A DNA stretch of 64,000 bases from Paraphysomonas bandaiensis (lineage: Eukaryota; Protista; Chrysophyceae): the NCBI GenBank assembly GCA_965644295.1, contig CBFFRP010000565.1:35953-99952 (forward strand), in the 5' to 3' direction. The position numbers and the translations under genes are program-made. Below the pieces are notes generated by a model that was not told the origin of the DNA, did no database searches, and saw nothing but the letters and a program-made list of their open reading frames with translations. Below, one piece after another: positions 20,790-64,000 of this stretch (its first letter is position 1; each line of letters begins with the position of its first letter).

Positions 20790-21504
20790 AACACCCCTTC
20801 ACAGTTGACAGAGTTCGAGTGAAGTTGCGAGCCCAATGTAAGGGTGTGACCTGTTCTAACACAGATTTATACAGCTGTCAGAGGTCAGTACGCAATTAAT
20901 CCAGTGCAGTACAGTGATGTATGTTGAGGGTGCGCCGTGTTAGGTGCGTATGTGCAAAGGGAAAAATATATCTGTGTGCGTCAGTGGCAGACCATATTCA
21001 CACACTCACCCATAAGGAGCATCCCATCCGTGCTTTGCAAAAAACTGCATCTAGACGTTGTACGATCGTACGTCGCAGTGGATTTGCATGCGAAAGTCCA
21101 GACACGAAAAACATTTTTCTCGACTTTTTTCAGCGGTCCGAAAAAACCTTGAGGTTTTTCGCAAACCACGGACGCGCCTATAGAGAGATGGTATAGAGTA
21201 TGGGATTTTGGTGTCGTAATACACTGTATTTGAAGTTGAAGGTGCCGTATACAAGAGTACGACTGCTGCTGTGTATAACTGGGCGTCGTTGTTAATGGCG
21301 CTATAGAGAGAGAGCAGAGTGACATCCCAGTCCCAGTTGGAGCTACCTCGATGCAATCTCCTACAAGGATAGCACATATGTGATGAATTCATTAGTTGTA
21401 GTCATTTCCGAATGGATCATATCAGTGATATGATAACTATACAGCTGAACAGTAACTGTACGTAGCCTATCTCATAGAGCTGTTGCTTCTGTCATAGAAG
21501 AACA

Positions 21505-26045: not shown

Positions 26046-28030
26046 CTAGAGAATGCCTTATTATTAGCAATGGGCGTTTCAGAGTCGAACTAATTTAGCA
26101 TTGCAATTTAACTAACTAGTGCTTAACCATCAACAAAGTCGGGCTCGCATATTTCGTGGTGTTCTGGGGGATAAGTACCGGAGATATTTCTCCTGAAACT
26201 AACGGAAGCCACATATATATAGTTAGCAGATATTGTTCTGCCCACTCATAGCCAAATGCTTGTGTGGTACAAGGGACAATATAAGTGTCACTTGTGTAGA
26301 CAGCTTTGGGCCTTGACGTATAAACAGGCATTCGGGAATGGGTCCACCTCAAGGGCATCCGGGGTATTGGGCTACCTGCTGAAGTCAAGCATCCGGGAAT
26401 AGGCCCACCTCAAAGGCATCGGGGTATTGAGAGCTTACTGCAGAAGTCAAGCATCCGGGCTGTTCACCTTGAGTACAGAGAGCGAAAGTGGTTGCATCTT
26501 ACACTTTGGTGATGCACAAGCAGCTTTCGTAGCGCTAAATAGTAGAATATCAGAGTTAAGCAATAGTTAGTTAAATTATAATGCTACATTGGTTCTGACA
26601 CTTACATGCCTACAATTGGACGCTACGAAAGCTGCTTGTTCGTCACCGAAAGCAGCAAGATGCTCTATCACTCAAAAACCGAACGCAGTGAGAAAGCAGA
26701 ATAATATATTGAAAGTCTTTTTATTTAGCAATAGGCGTTAAAAACTCGTTCCGATATAGTGGCTAGTTGAATGCTAGATCTACCAGTTAGACCTCTACCC
26801 ATAACTAATCAGCACAAATTCTATTATCCTACTATTTAGCGCTACAGAAGCTGCTTGTGCGTCGCCGCAAGCACCAAGGTGCAACCACTTCCGTTCTTAA
26901 TGTTGTTTGTGAGTTTCGCACTGCTCGTGTGTCTTAGGACTCACTGGCGCGTGTTGTCCGGGGGTCTCCCCTTGGGATAAGGTTCCGCCAGGCTCTGAGG
27001 TACAGGGTTCTGTATTAAGGTCCTGAGTGTACCGAGCACTAGATGTGTGTGCTGAGAGGTTGATGGTGTGGTGGAATGTGGCGGTGTCGCCGTGCACCGT
27101 CTGGGCGTCAGGCATAGGTGGAGTTGCCGGAGACAGTCCTTGGGATGTCAGTGACTCATGGATGTGATCTCCAAAAGCCGTCTCGAGTTGTGCAGTTGTG
27201 ATGGTACCCGTCCAGAATCTCTCCACCTGTGGAACGGAAGGATTCCAGGCCCTGCTGGAGAGCCGCTGTAGTACAGTGGTGGTCCATTGGGGTAGTTCCG
27301 GATTTCTCAGCTCTTCTTGAAGCGCGTTTTTGTGGCTGTGAAATGCAGACTCCCTTATCTGCGTTATGGCGTCATTTGTACAGTCTAGACACATATGCTT
27401 GAGTGAGTCTAGTCGAAATCCGCAGTCAGAACATGCGGCTTTAGCCAGGTCGAGTCCGTGTTTGGTTTTCGCCCGGTTTCTTCCTATGCTGAAAGATTTG
27501 TCCCATGTCAGTGCTGCATTGATTACTCGCTGGCGCAGGTGGGAACTCACTTTGTCCTTTGATGGTCCACCATCTGCTTGCGCCAGTTTGCGCGGAAGTA
27601 GTGCCCCACTGTCTGTCCAATATCCAGGAGCCCGGTCGGGATTGTGACCGTAGCGTTGGTCTCTGAGGGTAGTGTAGGCCTCCAGCGTCCGTTGATTGCG
27701 GAGGGATTGGAAATCCGTGAGCAGGGGGCTAGTGCGATACGGCCGTCGTTCCCCAGTTAGGCGCCAGTGCCATAAACCCTCGGTGAGTATTCGCTCAATG
27801 GCTTGGTCCACTTCTATGTTACAGACAGTGTAATTTTGTCGTCCGAGTAGTCTATCTACCTCAAGCCAGTCCTGAGCAAGCAGAATGTTGATATATATCT
27901 AACATCTTTCTGATGACTTCAGGACTTTTGAGTTACAAGCAGCTTTCCTGCCTTCGTAGCCTTAAATAGTAGGATATCAGGGGTATGCACTGTCTTGAAC
28001 GCTTATTGCTAATAATAAGGCATTCGCTAG
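26046..28030. mobile_element. Nested cluster of an unclassified ~500-bp repeat family (other copies at 45211-45727 and about 47125-47240)
   Basis: 26116-26560 is a diverged reverse complement of 45250-45727; 26715-26896 plus 27874-27935 match 45215-45420 in the same orientation; the ends ctagagaatgccttattattagcaat (26046) and attgctaataataaggcattcgctag (28030) are inverted. Confidence 0.7.
26897..27873 (-). pseudogene. Fragment of a non-LTR retrotransposon ORF2 C-terminus (CCHC zinc-binding region)
   Basis: GC-richer than its flanks; 304-aa ORF with CSDCGFRLDSLKHMCLDC (Cx2C..HxxxxC), typical of the region after RT; no RT or endonuclease core is present. Confidence 0.6.
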
Positions 28031-28361: not shown

Positions 28362-30050
<1,689 letters not shown>

Positions 30051-33150: not shown

Positions 33151-33554
33151 ACTGTTCGGCTCTATAAGTATTTCTAAATTAGATCTATGGACATGGTGGT
33201 TCGTGAGTTCAGAGTTGTTTCTATCCTATTAGCAGCAGTAAACTGGAACAGCAGTATTGACATGGAACCCTGTCTGCCTGTCTGCTGCATGTCATGTTCA
33301 TGTGCTGCTGTTCATCCCTACGATGTACTGCTGTACCTATGTACATATACACATATACATACATACTGAAATGTAACTGAAATTTTAGAAATTTCTTCAC
33401 CGTCTCTATAATTCCCCATTTTCTGAACTTAATATCCCCACTTTTGAGATTCAATGTTTTTACAGTTACAATTACACCTCCTTTATGTCCAGTCTTAACC
33501 ACCTGACTAACGGCTCACATAGACTGACTACATCAAACCTCATCGTGTGGACAG

Positions 33555-36500
33555 ATGTCAGGGTCAAATGGAGCACACTCAGATGATGAATCGGTTGTAT
33601 TTAACCCGGATGATTTTAATTCAGAGTTAGGGGATGAGGTCACTGCTAAATCAACTATAAATGAGGCTCGTCAGAAGGCACGGGAAGAGGCTAGTAGATT
33701 GATGGGGAATATGAAAGTGGGCACTACTGCTGTTCGTAAATCTGCTGCAAGTGTTAAGTCTAATGCAGTCGATGCCCGCAAGGCAGCTCAGTTGCAAGCA
33801 AACGAGTTGATGGGAAATATGAAAAGTGTAGCTCGCGAAGAGATTACTGCCAATAGTGCGAAAGTATCTGGTCGTATTAGCTCCAACATAACAGATGCAC
33901 GGAGTAAAGTCCGTCAGGAATCTAACAACCTAATGGGTGGTATGAAAGCGACTGGAAATGAAGTGTCTGCAGCGTATGATACGTATACTGCACAGGTCGA
34001 GGATACACAGAGAAAGGCTATCGAGGAAACCAATGACTTGATCCATGTAGCTCGCGAAGAGATTACTGCCAATAGTGCGAAAGTATCTGGTCGTGTTAGC
34101 TCCAACATAACAGATACACGGAGTAAAGTCCGTCAGGAATCTAACAACCTAATGGGTGGTATGAAAGCGACTGGAAATGAAGTGTCTGCAACGTATGATA
34201 CGTATACTGCACAGGTCGAGGATACACGGAGAAAGGTTACCGAGGAAACCAATGACTTGATTCATGTTGGCGACGAATTTATGACTTCTTCAGCCAATTC
34301 TGTAACTGAAATTGCTTCGAAACAAGCTCGGGATGCGAATTCTGTTGCCTCTGAATTCAATTCCAAAGTCAGCAGTGAAATGAGTGGATTGGAACGAAAA
34401 GCTGAAAACTTGCTGACGGATGCATCGACAGCGATTATTGGTAATATGTCTTCTCACCTATCAGACGTGAAGTCTGTCTTCAAAGATACCAAAAAAGTTG
34501 CCCGCCAGGAAATCGATGACGCTAAATCGGACACAGTGAAAGCTTTTAATAATGCTCGAAATGACACGTACTCACATATTGATGAGCTCAAAGGAAAAGC
34601 CTCTCAGGGGCGGGATCGGATAGAAGATGAGTTCAAAGCGTATGCAGGAAGTGAGTTATCACGTGTGACGGCATTTGCTGAGGATTTAACTGGAGAGAAA
34701 GTGTCGAAGCTATCGAAGAAAGATCTAAAGAAAGTTGCTCTTTCCACTCTCAAAACGGAGCTATCTAGTCTGGCTTCAGTTGCGAAATCTGCCATTATGC
34801 CGTCAGGATTTAATTACAGACAGTTGGACACTGAAGAAGAGCTATCGGCCGTTGAATTAGCTCGGTTAGATAAGAATAAATCTAGACTTCGAGAAGGTCG
34901 CTTCAAAGTTGGTGTTGATACATTCGAGAGCTGTCCATATGTATTTGTGCCTTCGTCTTATCTACAAAGCCCTACTTTTAACCTTGCAGATATATTCGAC
35001 ACGATTGATATCCCACTGCCTTCGATTTTATTTCGATTCTTTCAGACCGATGACCCAGTTAACTGGAATGTGAAACTACCACAAAGCCAACTGGGTTTGC
35101 AAGATATTGCGAAAGTGCAAACCAACAATCCGAAAAATAAAAAGATTTTTGGTCCATTATCTCACTACCAGAAAGTTCTCAAGGAAAATTGCCGTCGAAT
35201 GTTGTCAGCTGTGGCAGAGTCTTGCACTGAAGCCGGGGCTGCGTTTCGTATCAACGAGTCATGGTCTAGCGACGCTCCCATAGACGCAGTAGCGTCTTGG
35301 GTGTCAAACAACAACCGCTCTCGCGTGAACATTCTTGGGATTGCTTCGTCTAACGACTATCACCCTGATATATGGAAACAATTAGATGCCGGAGCTTCTG
35401 CCGATTTCGACGAGCTTGCTGAAGGAGGAAATGCAGATATTTCAGAAGTATTGATTGATCCCCAGCCTTTCTATGATGGCACCATTAAAGTTACAAGACA
35501 TCCAACTACGCAGCGTGTTGTTGGTTCTTTTCCGCATCCTAATTTAACACACCTAATTATTTCTGATAATCGGCCACTTTTAGAGCAGAAAATAGCTGAG
35601 GCGTTGCCATGGGGATTGATGTATGTGTATATATAGTGTCACCCAAAAAATGTTCATGTCAATTACAGAATGATTAATGGCTCACGCGCGGCTGCAGATT
35701 TGTTTGTGGAAGCAATACAGGACGGACTTCCAGTCATTGCATTTAAATATACAGGTTACACCGCTGACATAGCCTGCGAAATGTTGGAAAGGGCCGAGAA
35801 GTATCTGGATGAAAAGTCGTATAACTCTTCCACTAAGCCAGAGAGGCCATTTCGAAACGATATGCCCGTAGGATATAAGCCACCGAACTGGCTCCGCCCT
35901 TTTGATGAGTCATATATTTCTGACTGCGAAAAGGCTAACATATTGATTGACAATCTTCCTGATCGATTTGACTCTGGACAATTCTTTATTGTCGACATGT
36001 TCAGCACAACCGATGATGAACTGCAAGACAGGTTGACACAGACAATGGCGGTGGCTTTTGAAGGAGACAAAGAGCTAGGAGGATCTGCAGCCGAACATAA
36101 GAGGCTTACTTATGCGTGGCGAACTCGGCACTTGATGATATACAATGCGATGATATTTAAGCGATATTCAGATGTACTTCATGCACTAATGATTACTTTC
36201 ACTATGCTATCCACGTTTTCAGCTGTATTACACACTTATGCTGAGACTACTCCTGAGCTCTTTGGTTCATATCAAGATTTTGCATTGGGTATTTTACTTA
36301 AAGGCAACTTGCTACTCCCACTGATTACAACTGTTATACGTGGTGTTATATCGATTCTTAACCCGCAGATGAAGTATATATCACTCATAGGCGCTGCCAT
36401 ATTCATCGAGTCTGAGATATATTGCTATCGAGCCAAGGTTGGCAAGTACAATCCACGGCTTGTAGCAGCTCAAGGAGAGGGAGAGGTTAGCGCACGTGGG

Positions 36501-37441
36501 AATAACGTTGACGCCAGAGTAATTTTCTCATCCATACTGGATGCTATTTGGCAAGACCTTTCCGCCTCTGATGTACAGAACACTTCTTTGAAAACCCCAA
36601 GTGCAGAATCTGCTGTTGATGACGTAAATCAGAAGCTCCGGCAAAATCGACAAGAGCAAGAATTATTCACGACAGTTCTAGAGCAGTATGCACCACGAAA
36701 AGAAAGGAAAAAAGAAAGAGCAAAACATATCGACACAGGTGCACTTAAAAAAACTCTTGATTCTGGTGCAACATCATTGAGGAGGATGTCAACATTAAGT
36801 GGTGACATTGCCCCTCCACTACCTACACGAGTTGCAAGTGTTGTGCCAGAAGAAACCTCTGATTTTCCTGTCACACGCTCCTCGATATTAAGAGATGATG
36901 GGCTCAAGGCTCTTTCTGCTGATGAGTACGTTAACCTTCGTTTAATTCCAGAGCTTGCCTCATTGACCGGCAAAGCCTCCACACTAGCCTCGTCGACGTA
37001 CTTCGTTACAATAAGTGTGATTGTTCTATCAGTGTCTGCCTCTGCTCTTTCTACATTTGGGTACTCTTTATTTATCCCTGCTGTATTGAGTCTGTCTGGT
37101 GCTATTACAGCGTGGGGGTCTTATATGCAAACTGATCTCAGGTTGGTTAAAGTCAACGGCGCTCTTGCACAATTGAACCAGGTAATTTTGTGTGGTGCTA
37201 TGTAATTCATCTGCTAATAATTTTGCCGCAGTTAATAATTTGGTGGGACGGGCTTACCATGATAGAAAAACGTGTTCCCTCCAACAAAGAAATATTGATT
37301 CGAACTTGTGAAGCTGCTATTCAAGCACAAGCTGCTCCTGTAGGGGCGAAAAGTAATTCCGGGAATACCAAACAAGGAACTGAAGGTACTGATGGTGATG
37401 GTGAGAGTCAGGGTGATAAGGCAATGAAAACTAGAATGTAA
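33555..37441 (+). CDS. Membrane protein: helical repeat N-terminus + TRPM/LSDAT-type SLOG domain + two SLATT (DUF4231/SLATT_1-like) 2-TM domains
   Basis: Three exons (introns 35621-35668 and 37182-37231) give about 1260 aa. SLOG motifs VNILGIA, PHPNLTHLIISD, IMINGS, LPVIAFKYTGYTADIA. SLATT-A: AW..2TM..AAIFIESEIYCYRAKVGKY. SLATT-B: DDGLKALSADEYVNLRL..2TM..LIIWWDGLTMIEK..LIRTCEAAI. Confidence 0.78.
33828..34265 (+). repeat. In-frame 219-bp (73-aa) tandem duplication inside the SLOG-SLATT gene
   Basis: gtagctcgcgaagagattactgcc starts at both 33828 and 34047; the copies differ at only a few positions. Confidence 0.95.
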
Positions 37442-46079: not shown

Positions 46080-47750
46080 GACGCCTTCTATGTATTGCAC
46101 AATTAAGAAGAAGCGCAAGCTTGTGCGTTGCCGCGACCAGCCTAACAACTCGCGCGACGCAAAGCAAAACTGGACTCTCATCTAGTTACAACTGCATGCA
46201 CCGACAAGTGCCTAACTATATAACACGACTTTTAGTTAGCTGCATGGGCATACGACGAGTTGCGTGTTTAAGCCGGATCATACGCTCCTGCCCAAAATCT
46301 ACTTGTGCCCTACTAACACAAACAATTTGCAGTCGGTGTCTTCGGCATATGCCTCCTGTATATGCGGCAGATCTTTCGGGCCCTCTTCAAGGTGGTGTTC
46401 ACAGCAGCAGGTAGTCTGGAGGGGAGAGTAGAGTAGCTTTAGCGCCGGGTCCTCCCACGATCACGTGCAATTTTGCACTCTGACACATGAAATCTGTTAC
46501 AAATTCAAGCTGACTCCAGTGTCTTTCCTCCATTATGTGCACTCGTCCAGCCCATGCATCCACCTTGCACTCCTCTCCCAAGTGACTTACGCTAGTAGGA
46601 AACCGTGCACCTTCTCCGCTCGGATAGAAACCTACTAAGTAAGAAATAACATAAAGAGAAGAGAAGAAGGGCGCTTTACAGTGTAATTGCAATGTATTGT
46701 TGTACAATTCCTGAATCATTCATCCCATGCGCCTAGAAACTCTGTACACTAGAAACTACCAGCTTTTTTTATAGAACTGTTCAAAATATTCAGAAATAAA
46801 TATATTCCAAACATATATTTCAAATACTTTGTGTAACACAAATACCCACCTTCAGATAGGTGATAGTACATAAATCGGAATTCTATGTTTTTCAACTCCT
46901 ATTTTAAGTGGATTAAACTAAGAATTGTTGTTATTTTAACTGGGGATTTCACCTAGCTATTCTTATATTCTCCATATATTGTAGAAATATATCCTCTACG
47001 GGTTAGGGCTAGGTATTTCTAATTGTGCTATACAAGGGTTGTAGCACGTATGTTCGGTTCCATTGCACTGGAGGATTCCTATGGGCCCTCAACAAAGCCG
47101 GACTTGTACCATTTTGTGATTGTGGTGACACACGCAGCTTTCGTAGCGTTAAATAGTATTAGAGTAAAGCACCAGTTAGATAAATTGCATGCTGCTGTAA
47201 ATTACTTCTGACTCTTAAACATCTATTGCTAATAAATTATTCACTTCCTGGCCCAGAAATTAGATTATAACAAAACTTTGGCACAGGTACATTGGTAATT
47301 TTTATGTTATCCTGTCCTTAGTAGGCTTCCATCTAAGGTGAGAAATAGCACGGTTTCCCACTAGCGTAAGTTGCTCTGCAGAAGAGTGCAAGGTAGATGC
47401 GTGTGAGAAACGAGTGTATACAGTGGAGGGACGACTTCGGAGTCAGCTTAAATTTGTAGCAGATTTAGGTAAAAGTCTGTTTACTCTACTTTCCGCTCGC
47501 TTACCTTCTACAGTGAACATCACCTTGGGCCCTAGAAATTAGCCGCATATACAGATTACACGTACCTCAAGTTTTTTGTTGATTGGACAAGTTGCTTATT
47601 ATCGGGAATACTCATCGTATGCCAATGTTGCTAACTAAATCGTGGTGTATACTTTTACACTTGTCTGTACATGGCATAGTATCATATTGTTACGATTATT
47701 GTCCCGCGAGTAGTTTAGTTGTCAACGCACAAGCTTGTATTTCTTAATAA
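46080..47750. repeat. Pair of diverged inverted repeats (about 46080-46640 and 47315-47750)
   Basis: aaatctgttacaaattcaagctgactcc..ccaccttgcactc..cttacgctagtaggaaaccgtgc..cctactaag is mirrored by cttagtagg..gcacggtttcccactagcgtaag..gagtgcaaggt..ggagtcagcttaaatttgtagcagattt. Confidence 0.75.
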
Positions 47751-49598
47751 AAAGACGGTATTATACAAAACTGGTACAAATTTATATTGCTATAAAGTTT
47801 CTGTGTCACCACTTGTACTATATATATGATTTGCTATGCGGATTATGAAAAAGACGCAAATCTTTCTCGTCATAAACTTTGGCAGCAATCGAAGAGCAAA
47901 AATTGCTGCTATATTGCAGAGTCTTTGAAGGAGTAGGGTTGCCTTCACTGGAAACACACATGTAGGATTGACGGTTTAATAAACGTTATCAGAAAACATC
48001 TGGGACTGAGGTTGTAGATTCGATGTAGAAACTGTATCAGTGATCTCTAATATCTCCAGTGGGGTAACTATCAATGAACAAAGACACCGGATAAATTGAC
48101 GCATGCTGACCACCAGAATAAGATGACTGAAGTCCAAGTGAGCGCATCCTAATCGTCGACATGGATTTGCACATATATTGAGAATCAGCATGAGTAACAA
48201 AGCAGGGGACAGCAGTGATTCTATGCATAGCGCAGGTAATGGCATTGGCACTGAAACGGTGGTACTCGTGTGGTATTAGTGAGGTTATAAGTATACGTAA
48301 TGCAGGCGGTATCTAAGGTCAGCTGTTTGGTTACCCTATCTATAGGTGGGGTAAATAGGTATATCTAATATCAATACGTTGGCACTTATACGTACCTTAC
48401 AGGCTCCATATGTACAGAATTAGACGCACCGATGTATTTTGTAGAATGTGAAGTGAACTCTTGTGTAGGAAAGCGCTAGCAAAAGATTAAATCAATAAAT
48501 TCATTAGAGATCAGTTAGTGAATCTGCATCAATCATTTCTCAAAATTCATCTTTAAAATACCACAATTACGTGAATGAGAACAGTTAATTCAGATGCTGG
48601 GTTCAACATCAGTTATACTCGAATTTCCAACAGAACGCCCATTTAAAAACAATATAAATTCCGCATACTATACGATAAACTACAGCAATACTTGGCATAT
48701 TTACACTACGAGCTACGTTTTACGACAGCCCTTGAAACGTAAGTATCACTGAGAATCCCCTGCTTGATGAAATGCGTATCCATGAATATAAGCTATATTA
48801 TCTGCTCCATAGGAGTTTGCACTTATTGGTTCGTATGTATATTCAAGCTTAAAATATCTATTATTTTTATAAGTCTTCCTTGTCAGTAAAATATCTGTAC
48901 TTTTGTAAGAGCTCATTGTCATTCGTTAAGAATTACATTTGGCAACTGTTGAAACGTTTTCTACTACACAGAGAAACAGTTATATTACTGTAAAGGAAAT
49001 CAATTTTACATCAAACAGAAGAGAAAAGAGACAATGTAATCACATAGCGGTATCACTGACCTGTTCGGTGTAAAATATTCACGCATGACTGGTGGTTGGC
49101 TTCGTTGCGGCGTTGGAGCTATCAGTTGGTTTTCACGATGCAAATAATTGCGTGTGAGGCCACCAAAATAAGCTCGCTTCTCGTTGGCCATGATTCCACT
49201 GTGCGGATAATACAGGTGCGGTGTGTGCAATACAGGCACTAATTATGTATAGGATTATCCTTTAATGACTTTTGCTAAACAATACCACAGAAAATACGTG
49301 TTGTATAGCATTAAGCATGCATTGCAAATCCACCTATGAGATAAATACACGACAAAACTGGGCAACGAGGTGTTATCCTGACACGCCAAAATTTAGGCGT
49401 GCACAGACCACAACTAAATTTCCGCTACACTTGAACGTAAGTTGATGGAGTATATTCCTTGGACAAATACAGAAACAAAATGGAACAATGCTATACCAAA
49501 CAAAATAATCGTCTGATATATTAGTATACCAAAAGCACAGATCAACATTAACTATAATACAATATGCAATTCCACATACAAGAACAAAATATATACAT

Positions 49599-52500
49599 TC
49601 ACAGCATTGCAGTTTTTTGCTCAATGACTACAACTCTATTAATCAAATCTTGCACAAGCTTCTTCAATAACGCATTCTCCTCAGTTAATTTGGATATCAA
49701 AACCTCCATCTCCTCAAAAGAAACAGAATTCATAGACAACAATCGCCTAGATATTTGCTGATGATCACCAGTATAATATACATCTCCAATAACTGTCAAA
49801 CCACCAGTAATATGCAAACCACTTCCACTAATGGAAACACCACCAGAAACCTTCAAACCACCCGTCATTACAGTAGAACCACCAGTTACAGTGAAACCAT
49901 CAGTGAAAACACTAGAACCGCCAGTTACTGTCAATCCAGAATCTAATACGGATGAACCACCAGTAACCTTCAAACCACCCGTCATTACAGTAGAACCACC
50001 AGTAACTGTGAAACCATCAGTGAACACACTAGAACCACCAGTTACTGTCAATCCAGAATCTAATACGGATGAACCACCAGTAACCTTCAAACCACCCGTC
50101 ATTACAGTAGAACCACCAGTTACAGTGAAACCATCAGTGAAAACACTAGAACCGCCAGTTACTGTCAATCCAGCATCTAATACGGATGAACCACCAGTAA
50201 CCTTCAAACCACCCGTCATTACAGTAGAACCGCCAGTTACTGTCAATCCAGCATCTAATACGGATGAACCACCAGTAACCTTCAAACCACCGGTCATTAC
50301 AGTAGAGCCACCAGTAACTGTGAAACCATCAGTGAAAACACTAGAACCGCCAGTTACTGTCAATCCAGAATCTAATACGGATGAACCACCAGTAACCTTC
50401 AAACCACCGGTCATTACAGTAGAACCACCAGTTACAGTGAAACCATCAGTGAAAACACTAGAACCGCCAGTTACTGTCAATCCAGCATCTAATACGGATG
50501 AACCACCAGTAACCTTCAAACCACCGGTCATTACAGTAGAACCACCAGTAACTGTGAAACCATCAGTGAAAACACTAGAACCACCAGTTACTGTCAATCC
50601 AGAATCTAATACGGATGAACCACCAGTAACCTTCAAACCACCGGTCATTACAGTAGAACCACCAGTTACAGTGAAACCATCAGTGAAAACACTAGAACCA
50701 CCAGTTACTGTCAATCCAGCATCTAATACGGATGAACCACCAGTAACCTTCAAACCACCCGTCATTACAGTAGAACCGCCAGTTACTGTCAATCCAGAAT
50801 CTAATACGGATGAACCACCAGTAACCTTCAAACCACCGGTCATTACAGTAGAACCACCAGTTACAGTGAAACCATCAGTGAAAACACTAGAACCACCAGT
50901 TACTGTCAATCCAGAATCTAATACGGATGAACCACCAGTAACCTTCAAACCACCGGTCATTACAGTAGAACCACCAGTTACAGTGAAACCATCAGTGAAA
51001 ACACTAGAACCGCCAGTTACTGTCAATCCAGCATCTAATACGGATGAACCACCAGTAACCTTCAAACCACCCGTCATTACAGTAGAACCGCCAGTTACTG
51101 TCAATCCAGCATCTAATACGGATGAACCACCAGTAACCTTCAAACCACCGGTCATAACAGTAGAACCACCAGTTACAGTGAAACCATCAGTGAAAACACT
51201 AGAACCGCCAGTTACTGTCAATCCAGAATCTAATACGGATGAACCACCAGTAACCTTCAAACCACCGGTCATTACAGTAGAACCACCAGTTACAGTGAAA
51301 CCATCAGTGAAAACACTAGAACCGCCAGTTACTGTCAATCCAGAATCTAATACGGATGAACCACCAGTAACCTTCAAACCACCGGTCATAACAGTAGAAC
51401 CACCAGTTACAGTGAAACCATCAGTGAAAACACTAGAACCGCCAGCTACTGTCAACCCAGAATCTAATACGGATGAACCACCAGTAACCTTCAAACCACC
51501 GGTCATTACAGTAGAACCACCAGTTACAGTGAAACCATCAGTGAAAACACTAGAACCGCCAGTTACTGTCAATCCAGCATCTAATACGGATGAACCACCA
51601 GTAACCTTCAAACCACCCGTCATTACAGTAGAACCACCAGTTACTGTCAATCCAGCATCTAATACGGATGAACCACCAGTAACCTTCAAACCACCGGTCA
51701 TAACAGTAGAACCACCAGTTACAGTGAAACCATCAGTGAAAACACTAGAACCGCCAGTTACTGTCAATCCAGAATCTAATACGGATGAACCACCAGTAAC
51801 CTTCAAACCACCCGTCATTACAGTAGAACCGCCAGTTACTGTCAATCCAGCATCTAATACGGATGAACCACCAGTAACCTTCAAACCACCGGTCATAACA
51901 GTAGAACCACCAGTTACAGTGAAACCATCAGTGAAAACACTAGAACCACCAGTTACTGTCAATCCAGAATCTAATACGGATGAACCACCAGTAACCTTCA
52001 AACCACCCGTCATTACAGTAGAGCCACCAGTTACAGTGAAACCATCAGTGAAAACACTAGAACCACCAGTAACAGTAAAACCAGCATCTAATACGGATGA
52101 ACCACCAGTAACCTTCAAACCACCCGTCATTACAGTAGAACCACCAGTAACTGTGAAACCATCAGTGAAAACACTAGAACCGCCAGTTACTGTCAATCCA
52201 GAATCTAATACGGATGAACCACCAGTAACCTTCAAACCACCGGTCATTACAGTAGAACCACCAGTTACAGTGAAACCATCAGTGAAAACACTAGAACCGC
52301 CAGTTACTGTCAATCCAGCATCTAATACGGATGAACCACCAGTAACCTTCAAACCACCCGTCATTACAGTAGAGCCACCAGTTACTGTCAATCCAGCATC
52401 TAATACGGATGAACCACCAGTAACCTTCAAACCACCGGTCATCACAGTAGAACCACCAGTTACAGTGAAACCATCAGTGAAAACACTAGAACCACCAGTT

Positions 52501-55500
52501 ACTGTCAATCCAGAATCTAATACGGATGAACCACCAGTAACCTTCAAACCACCCGTCATTACAGTAGAGCCACCAGTTACAGTGAAACCATCAGTGAAAA
52601 CACTAGAACCACCAGTAACAGTAAAACCAGCATCTAATACGGATGAACCACCAGTAACCTTCAAACCACCGGTCATTACAGTAGAACCGCCAGTTACTGT
52701 CAATCCAGCATCTAATACGGATGAACCACCAGTAACCTTCAAACCACCCGTCATTACAGTAGAGCCACCAGTTACTGTCAATCCAGCATCTAATACGGAT
52801 GAACCACCAGTAACCTTCAAACCACCGGTCATAACAGTAGAACCACCAGTTACAGTGAAACCATCAGTGAAAACACTAGAACCGCCAGTTACTGTCAATC
52901 CAGCATCTAATACGGATGAACCACCAGTAACCTTCAAACCACCCGTCATTACAGTAGAACCGCCAGTTACTGTCAATCCAGCATCTAATACGGATGAACC
53001 ACCAGTAACCTTCAAACCACCCGTCATTACAGTAGAACCGCCAGTTACTGTCAATCCAGCATCTAATACGGATGAACCACCAGTAACCTTCAAACCACCC
53101 GTCATTACAGTAGAGCCACCAGTTACAGTGAAACCATCAGTGAAAACACTAGAACCACCAGTAACAGTAAAACCAGCATCTAATACGGATGAACCACCAG
53201 TAACCTTCAAACCACCCGTCATTACAGTAGAACCACCAGTTACTGTCAATCCAGAATCTAATACGGATGAACCACCAGTAACCTTCAAACCACCCGTCAT
53301 TACAGTAGAACCACCAGTTACAGTGAAACCATCAGTGAAAACACTAGAACCGCCAGTTACTGTCAATCCAGCATCTAATACGGATGAACCACCAGTAACC
53401 TTCAAACCACCCGTCATTACAGTAGAGCCACCAGTTACAGTGAAACCATCAGTGAAAACACTAGAACCACCAGTTACTGTCAATCCAGCATCTAATACGG
53501 ATGAACCACCAGTAACCTTCAAACCACCCGTCATTACAGTAGAGCCACCAGTAACTGTGAAACCATCAGTGAAAACACTAGAACCGCCAGTTACTGTCAA
53601 TCCAGCATCTAATACGGATGAACCACCAGTAACCTTCAAACCACCCGTCATTACAGTAGAGCCACCAGTAACTGTGAAACCATCAGTGAAAACACTAGAA
53701 CCGCCAGTTACTGTCAATCCAGCATCTAATACGGATGAACCACCAGTAACCTTCAAACCACCCGTCATTACAGTAGAACCACCAGTTACAGTGAAACCAT
53801 CAGTGAAAACACTAGAACCACCAGTTACTGTCAATCCAGCATCTAATACGGATGAACCACCAGTAACCTTCAAACCACCCGTCATTACAGTAGAACCACC
53901 AGTTACTGTCAATCCAGCATCTAATACGGATGAACCACCAGTAACCTTCAAACCACCCGTCATTACAGTAGAACCACCAGTTACAGTGAAACCATCAGTG
54001 AAAACACTAGAACCGCCAGTTACTGTCAATCCAGCATCTAATACGGATGAACCACCAGTAACCTTCAAACCACCCGTCATTACAGTAGAACCACCAGTTA
54101 CTGTCAATCCAGCATCTAATACGGATGAACCACCAGTAACCTTCAAACCACCCGTCATTACAGTAGAGCCACCAGTAACTGTGAAACCATCAGTGAATAC
54201 ACTAGAACCGCCAGTTACTGTCAATCCAGCATCTAATACGGATGAACCACCAGTAACCTTCAAACCACCCGTCATTACAGTAGAACCACCAGTTACTGTC
54301 AATCCAGAATCTAATACGGATGAACCACCAGTAACCTTCAAACCACCCGTCATTACAGTAGAACCACCAGTAACTGTGAAACCATCAGTGAAAACACTAG
54401 AACCGCCAGTTACTGTCAATCCAGCATCTAATACGGATGAACCACCAGTAACCTTCAAACCACCGGTCATTACAGTAGAGCCACCAGTAACTGTGAAACC
54501 ATCAGTGAAAACACTAGAACCGCCAGTTACTGTCAATCCAGTATCTAATACGGATGAACCACCAGTAACCTTCAAACCACCCGTCATTACAGTAGAACCA
54601 CCAGTAACTGTGAAACCATCAGTGAAAACACTAGAACCGCCAGTTACTGTCAATCCAGCATCTAATACGGATGAACCACCAGTAACCTTCAAACCACCCG
54701 TCATTACAGTAGAACCACCAGTTACTGTCAATCCAGCATCTAATACGGATGAACCACCAGTAACCTTCAAACCACCCGTCATTACAGTAGAGCCACCAGT
54801 AACTGTGAAACCATCAGTGAATACACTAGAACCGCCAGTTACTGTCAATCCAGCATCTAATACGGATGAACCACCAGTAACCTTCAAACCACCCGTCATT
54901 ACAGTAGAACCACCAGTTACTGTCAATCCAGCATCTAATACGGATGAACCACCAGTAACCTTCAAACCACCCGTCATTACAGTAGAACCACCAGTAACTG
55001 TGAAACCATCAGTGAAAACACTAGAACCGCCAGTTACTGTCAATCCAGCATCTAATACGGATGAACCACCAGTAACCTTCAAACCACCGGTCATTACAGT
55101 AGAGCCACCAGTAACTGTGAAACCATCAGTGAAAACACTAGAACCGCCAGTTACTGTCAATCCAGTATCTAATACGGATGAACCACCAGTAACCTTCAAA
55201 CCACCCGTCATTACAGTAGAACCACCAGTTACAGTGAAACCATCAGTGAAAACACTAGAACCGCCAGTTACTGTCAATCCAGCATCTAATACGGATGAAC
55301 CACCAGTAACCTTCAAACCACCCGTCATTACAGTAGAACCACCAGTTACTGTCAATCCAGCATCTAATACGGATGAACCACCAGTAACCTTCAAACCACC
55401 CGTCATTACAGTAGAACCACCAGTAACTGTGAAACCATCAGTGAAAACACTAGAACCGCCAGTTACTGTCAATCCAGCATCTAATACGGATGAACCACCA

Positions 55501-58500
55501 GTAACCTTCACACCACCGGTCATTACAGTAGAGCCACCAGTAACTGTGAAACCATCAGTGAAAACACTAGAACCGCCAGTTACTGTCAATCCAGCATCTA
55601 ATACGGATGAACCACCAGTAACCTTCAAACCACCCGTCATTACAGTAGAGCCACCAGTAACTGTGAAACCATCATTGAAAACACTAGAACCGCCAGTTAC
55701 TGTCAATCCAGCATCTAATACGGATGAACCACCAGTAACCTTCAAACCACCCGTCATTACAGTAGAACCACCAGTTACTGTCAATCCAGCATCTAATACG
55801 GATGAACCACCAGTAACCTTCAAACCACCCGTCATTACAGTAGAGCCACCAGTAACTGTGAAACCATCAGTGAATACACTAGAACCGCCAGTTACTGTCA
55901 ATCCAGCATCTAATACGGATGAACCACCAGTAACCTTCAAACCACCCGTCATTACAGTAGAACCACCAGTTACTGTCAATCCAGCATCTAATACGGATGA
56001 ACCACCAGTAACCTTCAAACCACCCGTCATTACAGTAGAACCACCAGTAACTGTGAAACCATCAGTGAAACAACTAGAACCGCCAGTTACTGTCAATCCA
56101 GCATCTAATACGGATGAACCACCAGTAACCTTCAAACCACCGGTCATTACAGTAGAGCCACCAGTAACTGTGAAACCATCAGTGAAAACACTAGAACCGC
56201 CAGTTACTGTCAATCCAGTATCTAATACGGATGAACCACCAGTAACCTTCAAACCACCCGTCATTACAGTAGAACCACCAGTTACAGTGAAACCATCAGT
56301 GAAAACACTAGAACCGCCAGTTACTGTCAATCCAGCATCTAATACGGATGAACCACCAGTAACCTTCAAACCACCCGTCATTACAGTAGAACCACCAGTT
56401 ACTGTCAATCCAGCATCTAATACGGATGAACCACCAGTAACCTTCAAACCACCGGTCATTACAGTAGAACCACCAGTAACTGTGAAACCATCAGTGAAAA
56501 CACTAGAACCGCCAGTTACTGTCAATCCAGCATCTAATACGGATGAACCACCAGTAACCTTCAAACCACCGGTCATTACAGTAGAGCCACCAGTTACAGT
56601 GAAACCATCAGTGAAAACACTAGAACCGCCAGTTACTGTCAATCCAGTATCTAATACGGATGAACCACCAATAACCTTCAAACCACCCGTCATTACAGTA
56701 GAACCACCAGTAACTGTGAAACCATCAGTGAAAACACTAGAACCGCCAGTTACTGTCAATCCAGCATCTAATACGGATGAACCACCAGTAACCTTCAAAC
56801 CACCCGTCATTACAGTAGAACCACCAGTTACTGTCAATCCAGCATCTAATACGGATGAACCACCAGTAACCTTCAAACCACCCGTCATTACAGTAGAGCC
56901 ACCAGTAACTGTGAAACCATCAGTGACAACACTAGAACCGCCAGTTACTGTCAATCCAGCATCTAATACGGATGAACCACCAGTAACCTTCAAACCACCC
57001 GTCATTACAGTAGAACCACCAGTTACTGTCAATCCAGCATCTAATACGGATGAACCACCAGTAACCTTCAAACCACCGGTCATTACAGTAGAACCACCAG
57101 TAACTGTGAAACCATCAGTGAAAACACTAGAACCGCCAGTTACTGTCAATCCAGCATCTAATACGGATGAACCACCAGTAACCTTCAAACCACCGGTCAT
57201 TACAGTAGAGCCACCAGTTACAGTGAAACCATCAGTGAAAACACTAGAACCGCCAGTTACTGTCAATCCAGTATCTAATACGGATGAACCACCAGTAACC
57301 TTCAAACCACCCGTCATTACAGTAGAACCACCAGTAACTGTGAAACCATCAGTGAAAACACTAGAACCGCCAGTTACTGTCAATCCAGCATCTAATACGG
57401 ATGAACCACCAGTAACCTTCAAACCACCCGTCATTACAGTAGAACCACCAGTTACAGTGAAACCATCAGTGAAAACACTAGTACCGCCAGTTACTGTCAA
57501 TCCAGAATCTAATACGGATGAACCACCAGTAACCTTCAAACCACCGGTCATTACAGTAGAGCCACCAGTTACAGTGAAACCATCGGTGAAAACACTAGAA
57601 CCGCCAGTTACTGTCAATCCAGAATCTAATACGGATGAACCACCAGTAACCTTCAAACCACCCGTCATTACAGTAGAACCACCAGTTACAGTGAAACCAT
57701 CAGTGAAAACACTAGAACCGCCAGTTACTGTCAATCCAGCATCTAATACGGATGAACCACCAGTAACCTTCAAACCACCCATCATTACAGTAGAACCACC
57801 AGTTACTGTCAATCCAGCATCTAATACGGATGAACCACCAGTAACCTTCAAACCACCGGTCATTACAGTAGAACCACCAGTTACAGTGAAACCATCAGTG
57901 AAAACACTAGAACCGCCAGTTACTGTCAATCCAGCATCTAATACGGATGAACCACCAGTAACCTTCAAACCACCCGTCATTACAGTAGAGCCACCAGTTA
58001 CTGTCAATCCAGCATCTAACACAGATGAACCACCAGTAACCTTCAAACCACCCGTCATTACAGTAGAACCACCAGTTACAGTGAAACCATCAGTGAAAAC
58101 ACTAGAACCGCCAGTTACTGTCAATCCAGCATCTAATACGGATGAACCACCAGTAACCTTCAAACCACCGGTCATTACAGTAGAACCACCAGTTACAGTG
58201 AAACCATCAGTGAAAACACTAGAACCGCCAGTTACTGTCAATCCAGCATCTAATACGGATGAACCACCAGTAACCTTCAAACCACCCGTCATTACAGTAG
58301 AGCCACCAGTTACTGTCAATCCAGCATCTAATACGGATGAACCACCAGTAACCTTCAAACCACCGGTCATTACAGTAGAACCACCAGTTACAGTGAAACC
58401 ATCAGTGAAAACACTAGAACCGCCAGTTACTGTCAATCCAGCATCTAATACGGATGAACCACCAGTAACCTTCAAACCACCCGTCATTACAGTAGAGCCA

Positions 58501-61500
58501 CCAGTTACTGTCAATCCAGCATCTAACACAGATGAACCACCAGTAACCTTCAAACCACCCGTCATTACAGTAGAACCACCAGTTACAGTGAAACCATCAG
58601 TGAAAACACTAGAACCGCCAGTTACTGTCAATCCAGCATCTAATACGGATGAACCACCAGTAACCTTCAAACCACCGGTCATTACAGTAGAACCACCAGT
58701 TACAGTGAAACCGTCAGTGAAAACACTAGAACCACCAGTTACTGTCAATCCAGCATCTAATACGGATGAACCACCAGTAACCTTCAAACCACCCGTCATT
58801 ACAGTAGAACCGCCAGTTACTGTCAATCCAGCATCTAATACGGATGAACCACCAGTAACCTTCAAACCACCGGTCATTACAGTAGAACCACCAGTTACAG
58901 TGAAACCGTCAGTGAAAACACTAGAACCACCAGTTACTGTCAATCCAGCATCTAATACGGATGAACCACCAGTAACCTTCAAACCACCCGTCATTACAGT
59001 AGAACCACCAGTTACTGTCAATCCAGAATCTAACACAGATGAACCACCAGTAACCTTCAAACCACCCGTCATTACAGTAGAGCCACCAGTTACAGTGAAA
59101 CCATCAGTGAAAACACTAGAACCGCCAGTTACTGTCAATCCAGCATCTAATACGGATGAACCACCAGTAACCTTCAAACCACCCATCATTACAGTAGAAC
59201 CACCAGTTACAGTGAAACCATCAGTGAAAACACTAGAACCGCCAGTTACTGTCAATCCAGCATCTAATACGGATGAACCACCAGTAACCTTCAAACCACC
59301 GGTCATTACAGTAGAACCACCAGTTACAGTGAAACCATCAGTGAAAACACTAGAACCGCCAGTTACTGTCAATCCAGCATCTAATACGGATGAACCACCA
59401 GTAACCTTCAAACCACCCGTCATTACAGTAGAACCACCAGTTACTGTCAATCCAGAATCTAACACAGATGAACCACCAGTAACCTTCAAACCACCCGTCA
59501 TTACAGTAGAGCCACCAGTTACAGTGAAACCATCAGTGAAAACACTAGAACCGCCAGTTACTGTCAATCCAGCATCTAATACGGATGAACCACCAGTAAC
59601 CTTCAAACCACCCATCATTACAGTAGAACCACCAGTTACAGTGAAACCATCAGTGAAAACACTAGAACCGCCAGTTACTGTCAATCCAGCATCTAATACG
59701 GATGAACCACCAGTAACCTTCAAACCACCCATCATTACAGTAGAACCACCAGTTACAGTGAAACCATCAGTGAAAACACTAGAACCGCCAGTTACTGTCA
59801 ATCCAGCATCTAATACGGATGAACCACCAGTAACCTTCAAACCACCCGTCATTACAGTAGAACCACCAGTTACTGTCAATCCAGAATCTAACACAGATGA
59901 ACCACCAGTAACCTTCAAACCACCCGTCATTACAGTAGAGCCACCAGTTACAGTGAAACCATCAGTGAAAACACTAGAACCGCCAGTTACTGTCAATCCA
60001 GCATCTAATACGGATGAACCACCAGTAACCTTCAAACCACCCATCATTACAGTAGAACCACCAGTTACAGTGAAACCATCAGTGAAAACACTAGAACCGC
60101 CAGTTACTGTCAATCCAGCATCTAATACGGATGAACCACCAGTAACCTTCAAACCACCGGTCATTACAGTAGAACCACCAGTTACAGTGAAACCGTCAGT
60201 GAAAACACTAGAACCACCAGTTACTGTCAATCCAGCATCTAATACGGATGAACCACCAGTAACCTTCAAACCACCCGTCATTACAGTAGAACCGCCAGTT
60301 ACTGTCAATCCAGCATCTAATACGGATGAACCACCAGTAACCTTCAAACCACCGGTCATTACAGTAGAACCACCAGTTACAGTGAAACCGTCAGTGAAAA
60401 CACTAGAACCACCAGTTACTGTCAATCCAGCATCTAATACGGATGAACCACCAGTAACCTTCAAACCACCCGTCATTACAGTAGAACCACCAGTTACTGT
60501 CAATCCAGAATCTAACACAGATGAACCACCAGTAACCTTCAAACCACCCGTCATTACAGTAGAGCCACCAGTTACAGTGAAACCATCAGTGAAAACACTA
60601 GAACCGCCAGTTACTGTCAATCCAGCATCTAATACGGATGAACCACCAGTAACCTTCAAACCACCCATCATTACAGTAGAACCACCAGTTACAGTGAAAC
60701 CATCAGTGAAAACACTAGAACCGCCAGTTACTGTCAATCCAGCATCTAATACGGATGAACCACCAGTAACCTTCAAACCACCGGTCATTACAGTAGAACC
60801 ACCAGTTACAGTGAAACCATCAGTGAAAACACTAGAACCGCCAGTTACTGTCAATCCAGCATCTAATACGGATGAACCACCAGTAACCTTCAAACCACCC
60901 GTCATTACAGTAGAACCACCAGTTACAGTGAAACCATCGGTGAAAACACTAGAACCGCCAGTTACTGTCAATCCAGCATCTAATACGGATGAACCACCAG
61001 TAACCTTCAAACCACCGGTCATTACAGTAGAACCACCAGTTACAGTGAAACCATCAGTGAAAACACTAGAACCACCAGTAACTGTGAAACCATCATCTAA
61101 TACGGATGAACCACCAGTAACCTTCAAACCACCCATCATTACAGTAGAACCACCAGTTACAGTGAAACCATCAGTGAAAACACTAGAACCGCCAGTTACT
61201 GTCAATCCAGCATCCAATACGGATGAACCACCAGTTACAGTGAAACCATCAGTGAAAACACTAGAACCGCCAGTTACTGTCAATCCAGCATCTAACACAG
61301 ATGAACCACCAGTAACCTTCAAACCACCGGTCATTACAGTAGAACCACCAGTTACAGTGAAACCATCAGTGAAAACACTAGAACCGCCAGTTACTGTCAA
61401 TCCAGCATCTAATACGGATGAACCACCAGTAACCTTCAAACCACCCGTCATTACAGTAGAACCACCAGTAACTGTGAAACCATCATCTAATACGGATGAA

Positions 61501-64000
61501 CCACCAGTAACCTTCAAACCACCGGTCATTACAGTAGAACCACCAGTTACAGTGAAACCATCAGTGAAAACACTAGAACCGCCAGTTACTGTCAATCCAG
61601 CATCTAATACGGATGAACCACCAGTAACCTTCAAACCACCCGTCATTACAGTAGAACCACCAGTTACAGTGAAACCATCAGTGAAAACACTAGAACCGCC
61701 AGTTACTGTCAATCCAGCATCTAATACGGATGAACCACCAGTAACCTTCAAACCACCCGTCATTACAGTAGAGCCACCAGTTACAGTGAAACCATCAGTG
61801 AAAACACTAGGAACCGCCAGTTACTGTCAATCCAGCATCTAATACGGATGAACCACCAGTAACCTTCAAACCACCGGTCATTACAGTAGAACCACCAGTT
61901 ACAGTGAAACCATCAGTGAAAACACTAGAACCGCCAGTTACTGTCAATCCAGCATCTAATACGGATGAACCACCAGTAACCTTCAAACCACCCGTCATTA
62001 CAGTAGAACCACCAGTTACTGTCAATCCAGCATCCAATACGGATGAACCACCAGTAACCTTCAAACCACCCGTCATTACAGTAGAACCACCAGTAACTGT
62101 GAAACCATCATCTAATACGGATGAACCACCAGTAACCTTCAAACCACCGGTCATTACAGTAGAGCCACCAGTTACAGTGAAACCATCAGTGAAAACACTA
62201 GAACCGCCAGTTACTGTCAATCCAGCATCTAATACGGATGAACCACCAGTAACCTTCAAACCACCCGTCATTACAGTAGAACCACCAGTAACTGTGAAAC
62301 CATCAGTGAAAACACTAGAACCGCCAGTTACTGTCAATCCAGCATCTAATACGGATGAACCACCAGTAACCTTCAAACCACCGGTCATTACAGTAGAACC
62401 ACCAGTTACAGTGAAACCATCATCTAATACGGATGAACCACCAGTAACCTTCAAACCACCCGTCATTACAGAAGAACCACCAGTTACAGTGAAACCATCA
62501 GTGAAAACACTAGAACCGCCAGTTACTGTCAATCCAGCATCTAATACGGATGAACCACCAGTAACCTTCAAACCACCGGTCATTACAGTAGAACCACCAG
62601 TTACAGTGAAACCATCAGTGAAAACACTAGAACCGCCAGTTACTGTCAATCCAGCATCTAATACGGATGAACCACCAGTAACCTTCAAACCACCGGTCAT
62701 TACAGTAGAACCACCAGTTACAGTGAAACCATCAGTGAAAACACTAGAACCGCCAGTTACTGTCAATCCAGCATCTAATACGGATGAACCACCAGTAACC
62801 TTCAAACCACCCGTCATTACAGTAGAACCACCAGTAACTGTGAAACCATCATCTAATACGGATGAACCACCAGTAACCTTCAAACCACCGGTCATTACAG
62901 TAGAACCACCAGTTACAGTGAAACCATCAGTGAAAACACTAGAACCGCCAGTTACTGTCAATCCAGCATCTAATACGGATGAACCACCAGTAACCTTCAA
63001 ACCACCGGTCATTACAGTAGAACCACCAGTTACAGTGAAACCATCAGTGAAAACACTAGAACCGCCAGTTACTGTCAATCCAGCATCTAATACGGATGAA
63101 CCACCAGTAACCTTCAAACCACCGGTCATTACAGTAGAACCACCAGTTACAGTGAAACCATCAGTGAAAACACTAGAACCGCCAGTTACTGTCAATCCAG
63201 CATCTAATACGGATGAACCACCGGTAACCTTCAAACCACCCGTCATTACAGTAGAACCACCAGTAACTGCGAAACCATCATCTAATGCGGATGAACCACC
63301 AGTGACCTGCCAAACCACCGGTCATTACAGTAGAACCACCAGTTACGAGTGAAACCATCGAGTGAAAACGCTAGAACCGCCAGTTACTGTCAATCCAGCA
63401 TCTAATGCGGATGAGCCACCGGTTAACCTTCAAACCGCCGGTCATTACAGTAGAACCACCAGTTACAGTGAAACCATCAGTGAAAACACTAGAACCGCCA
63501 GTTACTGTCAATCCAGCATCTAATACGGATGAACCACCAGTAACCTTCAAACCACCCGTCATTACAGTAGAACCACCAGTAACTGTGAAACCATCATCTA
63601 ATAGCGGATGAACCACCAGTAACCTTCAAACCACCGGTCATTACAGTAGAACCACCAGTTACAGTGAAACCATCAGTGAAAACACTAGAACCACCAGTAA
63701 CTGTGAAACCATCATCTAATACGGATGAACCACCAGTAACCTTCAAACCACCCGTCATTACAGTAGAACCACCAGTTACAGTGAAACCATCAGTGAAAAC
63801 ACTAGAACCGCCAGTTACTGTCAATCCAGCATCTAATACGGATGAACCACCAGTAACCTTCAAACCACCAGTCATTACAGTAGAACCACCAGTTACAGTG
63901 AAACCATCAGTGAAAACACTAGAACCGCCAGTTACAGTGAAACCAGCATCTAATACGGATGAACCACCAGTAACCTTCAAACCACCCGTCATTACAGTAG
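49599..64000 (-). CDS. Giant (>4,700 aa, N-terminus outside the window) G/T/V/S-rich 13-aa-repeat protein, predicted beta-helical fibre with a C-terminal coiled coil
   Basis: 4054-aa open frame 49599-61763 continues upstream past a few single-base indels (61810, 63300-63430, 63603). Units MTGGLKVTGGSSV / LDAGLTVTGGSSV / FTDGFTVTGGSTV. Unique C-terminus ...YYTGDHQQISRRLL...LTEENALLKKLVQDLINRVVVIEQK, then a stop. Confidence 0.85.
49840..64000. repeat. Coding minisatellite: 39-bp basic unit arranged in 117-bp and 78-bp higher-order repeats
   Basis: A continuous array of near-identical units over about 14.1 kb, running to the window end. Confidence 0.98.

Follow-up and report, generated by a model that had tools for sequence, protein, structure and literature searches.

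A giant 13-residue repeat protein of Paraphysomonas bandaiensis and its stramenopile relatives: a candidate for the terminal filament of flagellar hairs

What would a chrysophyte build from a protein in which one 13-residue unit is repeated at least 361 times? This question is raised by a locus of Paraphysomonas bandaiensis, located in a window of 64,000 nucleotides (assembly GCA_965644295.1, contig CBFFRP010000565.1, positions 35,953 to 99,952 of the forward strand). A first-pass annotation, made from the letters alone, had described a giant beta-fibre-like repeat protein with a viral-fibre-style C-terminus, and had suggested a surface hair, extrusome, stalk or adhesin, possibly of viral origin. 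Comparison with other proteins points to a family of secreted stramenopile fibre proteins, whose heads resemble those of the proteins of mastigonemes, the tubular hairs of the flagellum. It is proposed here, with a confidence that falls somewhat short of an even chance, that the gene encodes a mastigoneme-attached filament, a triple beta-helix of at least approximately 350 nm, and that this is most likely the long terminal filament of the hair.

The repeat array lies on the minus strand at 49836-64000 and was delimited as one tandem array by Tandem Repeats Finder (49839-64000). Counting from 63983 to 49898 gave 361 units of 39 bp (13 residues), or approximately 363 when the terminal ones are included, both of which are minimum numbers because the array reaches the edge of the window. 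Three main types of unit occur, for the most part in the order ABC, and each unit would form two short beta-strands; the periodicity peaks at 13, and subsidiary peaks lie at 6 and 7. The longest open frame on this strand (49599-61820, stop codon at 49599-49601) encodes 4,073 residues with a single Cys and a single Pro, the latter at a frameshift junction, and Ser and Thr account for 33% of the repeat protein. Thus, the first-pass annotation was right about the number of units (about 360), their consensus, the near-absence of Pro and Cys and the lack of an intron inside the array. Among the unit variants, 258 are synonymous and 82 are not. This excess of silent changes shows coding constraint, but not which strand is under it, because an open frame on the plus strand shares its wobble positions with the minus frame.

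The strand was established from transcripts. Contigs of four of 23 listed sequencing runs were compared with the 3' flank of the array, contig depth giving no expression level. In run X9, taken by guess to be RNA, one colinear contig spans 49107-49877 at a depth of 98, compared with 0 in silent stretches such as 47298-48551, and outlines a 3' untranslated region at 49107-49598 (minus strand). The metatranscriptome X14 covers 49501-49877 with zero differences, and run X10 contained no contig over the coding tail. Another X9 contig (depth 6) overlaps the untranslated region and, in a low-depth 3' extension, skips a 97-nt intron at 48964-49060, which has GT-AG borders only when read on the minus strand and in this way fixes the strand. 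The RNA found over the tail and 3' untranslated region, together with this intron, makes it likely that the minus-strand gene is transcribed.

Relatives were sought with the last 139 residues as the query, which yielded 7,982 candidates and, among them, 10 proteins, all of which are fibre proteins. Six of them carry Pfam Peptidase_S74 and six carry EGF-like heads, and the one match lacking both is itself a fragment, from a protein that has the two. All three giant matches (2,250-2,701 aa) carry both head and S74, and the best E-value for homologues of the minus frame is 8e-50. A profile of the 10 members matched 206 proteins (120 listed), and an exhaustive search gave 233 matches (150 representatives listed). 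Head and S74 are both present in 26 of these 150 representatives, the head alone in 18, S74 alone in 59 and neither in 47, and the head is found in nine of the best 13. The layout of the family in these relatives is a signal peptide, a Cys-rich, EGF-like head of mastigoneme type, the 13-residue repeat and a phage-type Peptidase_S74 chaperone. Among the matches listed, head and S74 occur together in Paraphysomonas imperforata, Ochromonas/Chlorochromonas danica (presumably two labels for one species, with two such proteins of 914 and 1,503 aa), Spumella, Dinobryon and four Phytophthora species, and head and fibre with an end that is not preserved occur in Mallomonas, Aphanomyces, Achlya, Plasmopara and Triparma. 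All the members named in this set are flagellated stramenopiles.

The repeats themselves gave the same picture. Over 112-117 aa, the best matches to pure repeats are P0005 (62%), which has repeats and an intact S74, and P0004 of Mallomonas (60%), in which the head is followed by an open, near-perfect 13-period array. In 13 members, the most frequent motif spacing is 13, and the 13-residue G-hydrophobic-x-V-T-G-G repeat is present in the window protein. The S74-bearing ends of relatives match phage tail-fibre families, MYRF and a phage long tail fibre. At the level of sequence, these findings delimit an unnamed stramenopile family that joins an OCM-type mastigoneme head, a 13-residue fibre and S74 (chrysophytes, zoosporic oomycetes and Triparma), relative to which the window protein appears to have lost the S74 core.

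Further variation was observed within and around this family. In P0065, P0077, P0078 and P0096, the mastigoneme head and fibre are combined with C-terminal tips other than S74 (that of P0065 weakly matches phrog_12102), which suggests that tips are swapped as in phage fibres. The Phytophthora fragariae member (P0035, P0040-P0048) ranges from 2,074 to 2,528 aa across records, reflecting either repeat number or assembly. Similar fibre repeats follow a different secreted N-terminus in P0145, which is labelled Picozoa, and in P0221. Metagenome scans for the N-terminus of the gene confirmed none of 178 stretches, and repeat-only matches in four of 112 were weak (E 1e-4 to 3e-4) and were rejected as low-complexity.

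If the relatives end in S74, what stands in its place here? After the 361 counted units, two divergent units (49752-49859) are followed by a short linker ending in S-RRL (49740-49751), an amphipathic helix (49605-49718) and the stop at 49599, all on the minus strand. The divergent units align with MYRF's stalk, a triple beta-helix, through the family profile. In relatives, the last repeat leads to the cleavage motif SDxRLK and then to the S74 core and a coiled coil, whereas the window protein has S-RRL-L at that position and then the helix only. In a model of the 113-aa tail, residues 75-112 are predicted as helix (predicted local distance difference test, pLDDT, 95-98), and its heptad pattern is kept in two relatives, so the taper into a heptad coiled coil seen at first reading is confirmed. 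These relatives, P0182 and P0199, are short environmental proteins with near-perfect repeats, an invariant RRL and the helix, and show 43% identity to the tail. Because both share RRL and helix, the tail is, as far as alignment can tell, a conserved subtype and not a product of decay.

The Pfam S74 core is absent from the window protein, whose S74 profile score is -7 bits versus 29-60 bits for 30 family sites. The tail keeps the Ser of the Ser-Lys dyad and has Ser at the Lys position. In a shuffle test, the resemblance to S74 gave p=0.004 at a fixed register and p=0.11 for the best of any register, a weak hint of an S74 relic; the spacing of S74 is not retained in P0182 and P0199. An apparent S74 register, considered earlier, was downgraded after this test and the comparison with the two RRL relatives, and a downstream S74 exon was rejected, as none was found in the window and the RNA contig is colinear through the stop. 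Calling the C-terminus viral in style is too simple: it occupies the place of the S74 of relatives and has no catalytic core. RxL is present inside 72 of 115 S74 sites counted among relatives, and the accessible text on diatom wall proteins gives RXL as a potential proteolytic site (PMC9650480). Searches of PDB, Pfam and PHROG with the tail itself returned nothing of weight, the 113-aa model resembles generic helices only (best Z 5.8), and the best match in the ESM Atlas (0.81) is a lead only. An AlphaFold monomer of the last 233 residues reached a pLDDT of 43.5, gave no Foldseek match at E<=0.001 and was uninformative.

The link to flagella comes from the heads. In PDB 9UFE, that of P0002 has six matching chains (E 1.6e-36 to 1.1e-21), which bear the names tubular mastigoneme protein, OCM3, OCM5 and OCM6. 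In a quick IQ-TREE analysis of 58 heads, 41 fibre-bearing heads formed one branch versus 17 OCM-like heads, with a Shimodaira-Hasegawa-like approximate likelihood ratio test (SH-aLRT) value of 99; four rows without the anchor motif had been dropped, and the rows did not include the window protein. Since the N-terminus of the latter falls outside the window, its OCM head is deduced from relatives, which make it likely that a mastigoneme-type head is encoded upstream. Among the sites first suggested, a surface fibre is thus retained, and the choice narrows to a flagellar hair because the head of relatives is the mastigoneme OCM/Sig1 module. According to the accessible parts of the literature, tubular hairs consist of a base, a shaft and terminal filaments, those of Ochromonas having one to three terminal filaments plus lateral filaments, in two sizes (PMC2108286), and small ocean heterokonts have a single terminal filament of 0.3-0.4 um (PMC9310263). 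Phytophthora Mas1 and Mas2 have been reported as shaft proteins (bioRxiv 10.64898/2026.09.11.750887), and an origin of hairs from EGF-like glycoproteins has been discussed (PMC5756292).

A trimeric, beta-helical, phage-like fibre on the protist surface had been envisaged from the outset, and is supported by the phage tail-fibre S74 chaperone of relatives. By analogy with the alveolate fibre TLP-12, which rises 9.6 A per repeat, 363 repeats would give approximately 350 nm as a lower bound; of the range of 170-350 nm estimated earlier, the upper value is the one supported. This predicted length is similar to that of the terminal filament of small heterokonts. In the proposed mechanism, the precursor would be secreted into the endoplasmic reticulum, and three chains would be set in register by the C-terminal coiled coil. 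The beta-helix would then zip from the C-terminus, with two strands and about 9.6 A per repeat, and a host secretory protease would cut the coiled coil off at RRL, substituting for the self-cleaving S74 of relatives. OCM-type heads would co-assemble with shaft subunits and anchor the thread on the tubular hair. Filament length would be set by repeat number, and Ser and Thr may be O-glycosylated.

Two stronger versions of this proposal are held with less confidence. That the protein is specifically a terminal filament of phage-fibre ancestry is possible but doubtful. It is similarly doubtful, as a general hypothesis, that the terminal filaments of stramenopile hairs are domesticated phage tail fibres, in which a mastigoneme subunit was fused to a triple beta-helix and an S74 chaperone, paralogs differing in repeat number rule the lengths, and the giant member makes the long filament, a host RRL site latent in SD-RRL-K having replaced self-cleavage.

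Several observations weigh against a terminal filament. None of the matched 9UFE chains is a family member, the N-terminus of the window protein is beyond the window, and its assembled array frame is broken by six insertions. The RRL-tail relatives P0182 and P0199 are short headless fragments, and P0145 and P0143 carry the same repeat type behind other N-termini. The agreement in length is that of a lower bound multiplied by a rise borrowed from TLP-12, and most complete relatives would span just 32-170 nm, from which it would follow that paralogs could supply both short and long filaments. Diatom sperm carry terminal filaments, and the named entries among the 120 listed of 206 matches include no fibre member from a diatom or a brown alga. 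Terminal filaments are also reported, in a literature listing, for the sperm of the brown alga Fucus.

A secreted trimeric beta-helix fibre elsewhere on the cell, with or without an OCM head, could explain much of this and is considered a substantial minority possibility, whether as a glycocalyx fibril, stalk, scale, prey-capture thread or lateral filament. It would accommodate an array at least twice the length of any complete relative and the similar repeats that sit behind other N-termini, as well as the ICA-capped TLP-12 candidates of approximately 20,000 aa, which are unlinked to flagella in the accessible text of their report. The RXL sites typical of diatom wall proteins (PMC9650480) and the two sizes of lateral filaments that Ochromonas hairs also carry (PMC2108286) would fit as well. 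On the other hand, the mastigoneme head is found in nine of the 13 best representatives and in P0004, which among head-bearing proteins matches the repeat most closely. Lateral filaments have been described in chrysophytes, whereas the family also occurs in oomycetes and Triparma, which argues against a lateral filament in particular. A filament of the flagellar hair, preferably the terminal one, is still favoured.

The broken frame could also indicate a decaying, non-functional paralog with real frameshifts and a lost S74 chaperone, and the absence of the S74 core and of the catalytic Lys would agree with this. The array had been read as one open frame, which did not hold: six single-base insertions interrupt it within 61794-63632 (minus strand), five of them inside 63316-63632 (units starting at 63632, 63436, 63396, 63356 and 63316) and one in the unit starting at 61833, and the shifted frames contain stops. 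The plus strand, too, has an open frame (4,021 aa). However, all six insertions are +1, five fall inside approximately 320 bp and four are in consecutive units, so that they are probably long-read errors in a repeat that resists polishing, and 12.2 kb stay open despite them. The predominance of silent unit variants, the X9 depth over the tail against none in silent stretches, and the RRL-helix tail kept in two relatives also speak against decay, which is regarded as improbable.

That the fibre gene belongs to an integrated virus, such as a giant virus or Polinton-like element, might be suspected from the matches between the C-terminal parts of relatives and phage tail-fibre families. The recent viral origin raised in the first-pass annotation found no support: the neighbours are eukaryotic (kinases, a BK channel, polyubiquitin and a sulfotransferase among 18 open reading frames scanned on the downstream side of the gene), no GC step was seen at the array border beyond the repeat's own skew, two viral contig scans confirmed no candidate stretch as a relative (none of 8 and none of 50), and the family, with its eukaryotic, secreted head, is spread across stramenopiles. 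Judged by its sequence context, this is a host gene and not a viral insert, the viral explanation being very improbable. Hardly credible, finally, is the Pro/Val/Thr-rich plus-strand frame as the gene: it is open over 49777-61842 and its shared wobble positions leave silent-site counts indecisive, but it has one Met and no signal-like N-terminus, whereas the minus strand has the homologues, a conserved tail extending past the start of the plus frame, and the sole spliced joint.

Other features of the window are of separate interest. On the minus strand, an RGS plus kinase pair of GRK-like architecture spans two frames, probably split by an intron (11528-13192), a 333-aa GC-richer frame without a Pfam match gives the impression of a retroelement remnant (26897-27898), and polyubiquitin consists of seven 228-bp units that are 99% identical (28362-30050). 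The plus strand encodes a BK/Slo-type potassium channel (21478-24384) and two adjoining frames (33528-37205) with apolipoprotein-like helical repeats and a 219-bp duplication, followed by a weak SLATT_1/DUF4231 match (E 0.12, below the cut-off), possibly a SLOG-SLATT-type protein. Short interspersed repeats at 46500-46655 and 47180-47235 stand out by contigs of very great depth, in DNA as well as RNA runs.

The literature searches returned no paper that connects mastigoneme proteins to S74 or identifies a protein of the terminal filament, although most subscription papers were beyond the search and a prior description is possible. Eukaryotic ICA-folded beta-fibres are already known as a kind; what is new is the fusion to a mastigoneme head and its stramenopile range, together with the giant, homogeneous array and the swap to RRL. 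The shaft proteins of tubular mastigonemes are known, and the present family provides a specific pan-stramenopile candidate for the terminal filament, with a built-in length rule of about 1 nm per repeat. The hairs that would carry such a thread serve golden algae and water moulds in swimming. If the proposal is true, it would represent a further eukaryotic reuse of a phage fibre module, after MYRF and TLP-12, and would place this module in the organelle with which ocean grazers, algal gametes and zoospores reverse thrust. Moreover, the closest relatives are known as fragments only, suggesting that short-read annotation misses giant members.

Three known systems offer the closest comparisons. 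With the OCM1-6/Sig1/PnMas1-3 proteins (PDB 9UFE), relatives share a homologous N-terminal module, which nests beside OCM-like proteins in the tree, whereas the matched 9UFE chains are shaft proteins of 209-748 aa without fibre or S74. With phage S74/ICA fibres (PF13884; PDB 6F45, 3GUD) and MYRF (PDB 7DC3), relatives share beta-repeats, SDxRLK, the S74 core and the coiled coil; MYRF is reported to trimerise mainly through its C-terminal coiled coil and to require the Ser-Lys dyad for self-cleavage (PMC8326128, PMC3742443, PMC11058221, as far as accessible). The window protein is predicted to have the alternating 6-7-residue strands with Gly turns and the C-terminal coiled-coil helix of such fibres, and its last repeats are those that align to the MYRF stalk; unlike them, it lacks the Lys and the core while keeping Ser and helix, it has hundreds of near-identical repeats, and its relatives have a secreted eukaryotic head.

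TLP-12 is described as a cryo-EM triple beta-helix of O-glycosylated 12-residue repeats, each with two strands and 9.6 A, and its ICA-capped candidates of approximately 20,000 aa are from the alveolate Amoebophrya (bioRxiv 10.1101/2025.09.30.679562). The accessible text of that report never mentions a stramenopile, Ochromonas or chrysophyte, and its supplements might list further candidates. The GSxxS motif of the TLP-12 repeat (GSxxSx7) occurs 0 times in the 4,073-aa frame, and tandem copies were found in 0 of 279 proteins examined. The window protein further differs in its period of 13, its stramenopile host, the mastigoneme head of its relatives and its own lack of an ICA core. Both are giant eukaryotic Ser/Thr-rich tandem repeats with two short strands per repeat and Gly turns, and the triple beta-helix is reported to fold from a C-terminal ICA, which the window protein's relatives possess. 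By this analogy, the window protein is not a member of TLP-12 but likely works in the same way.

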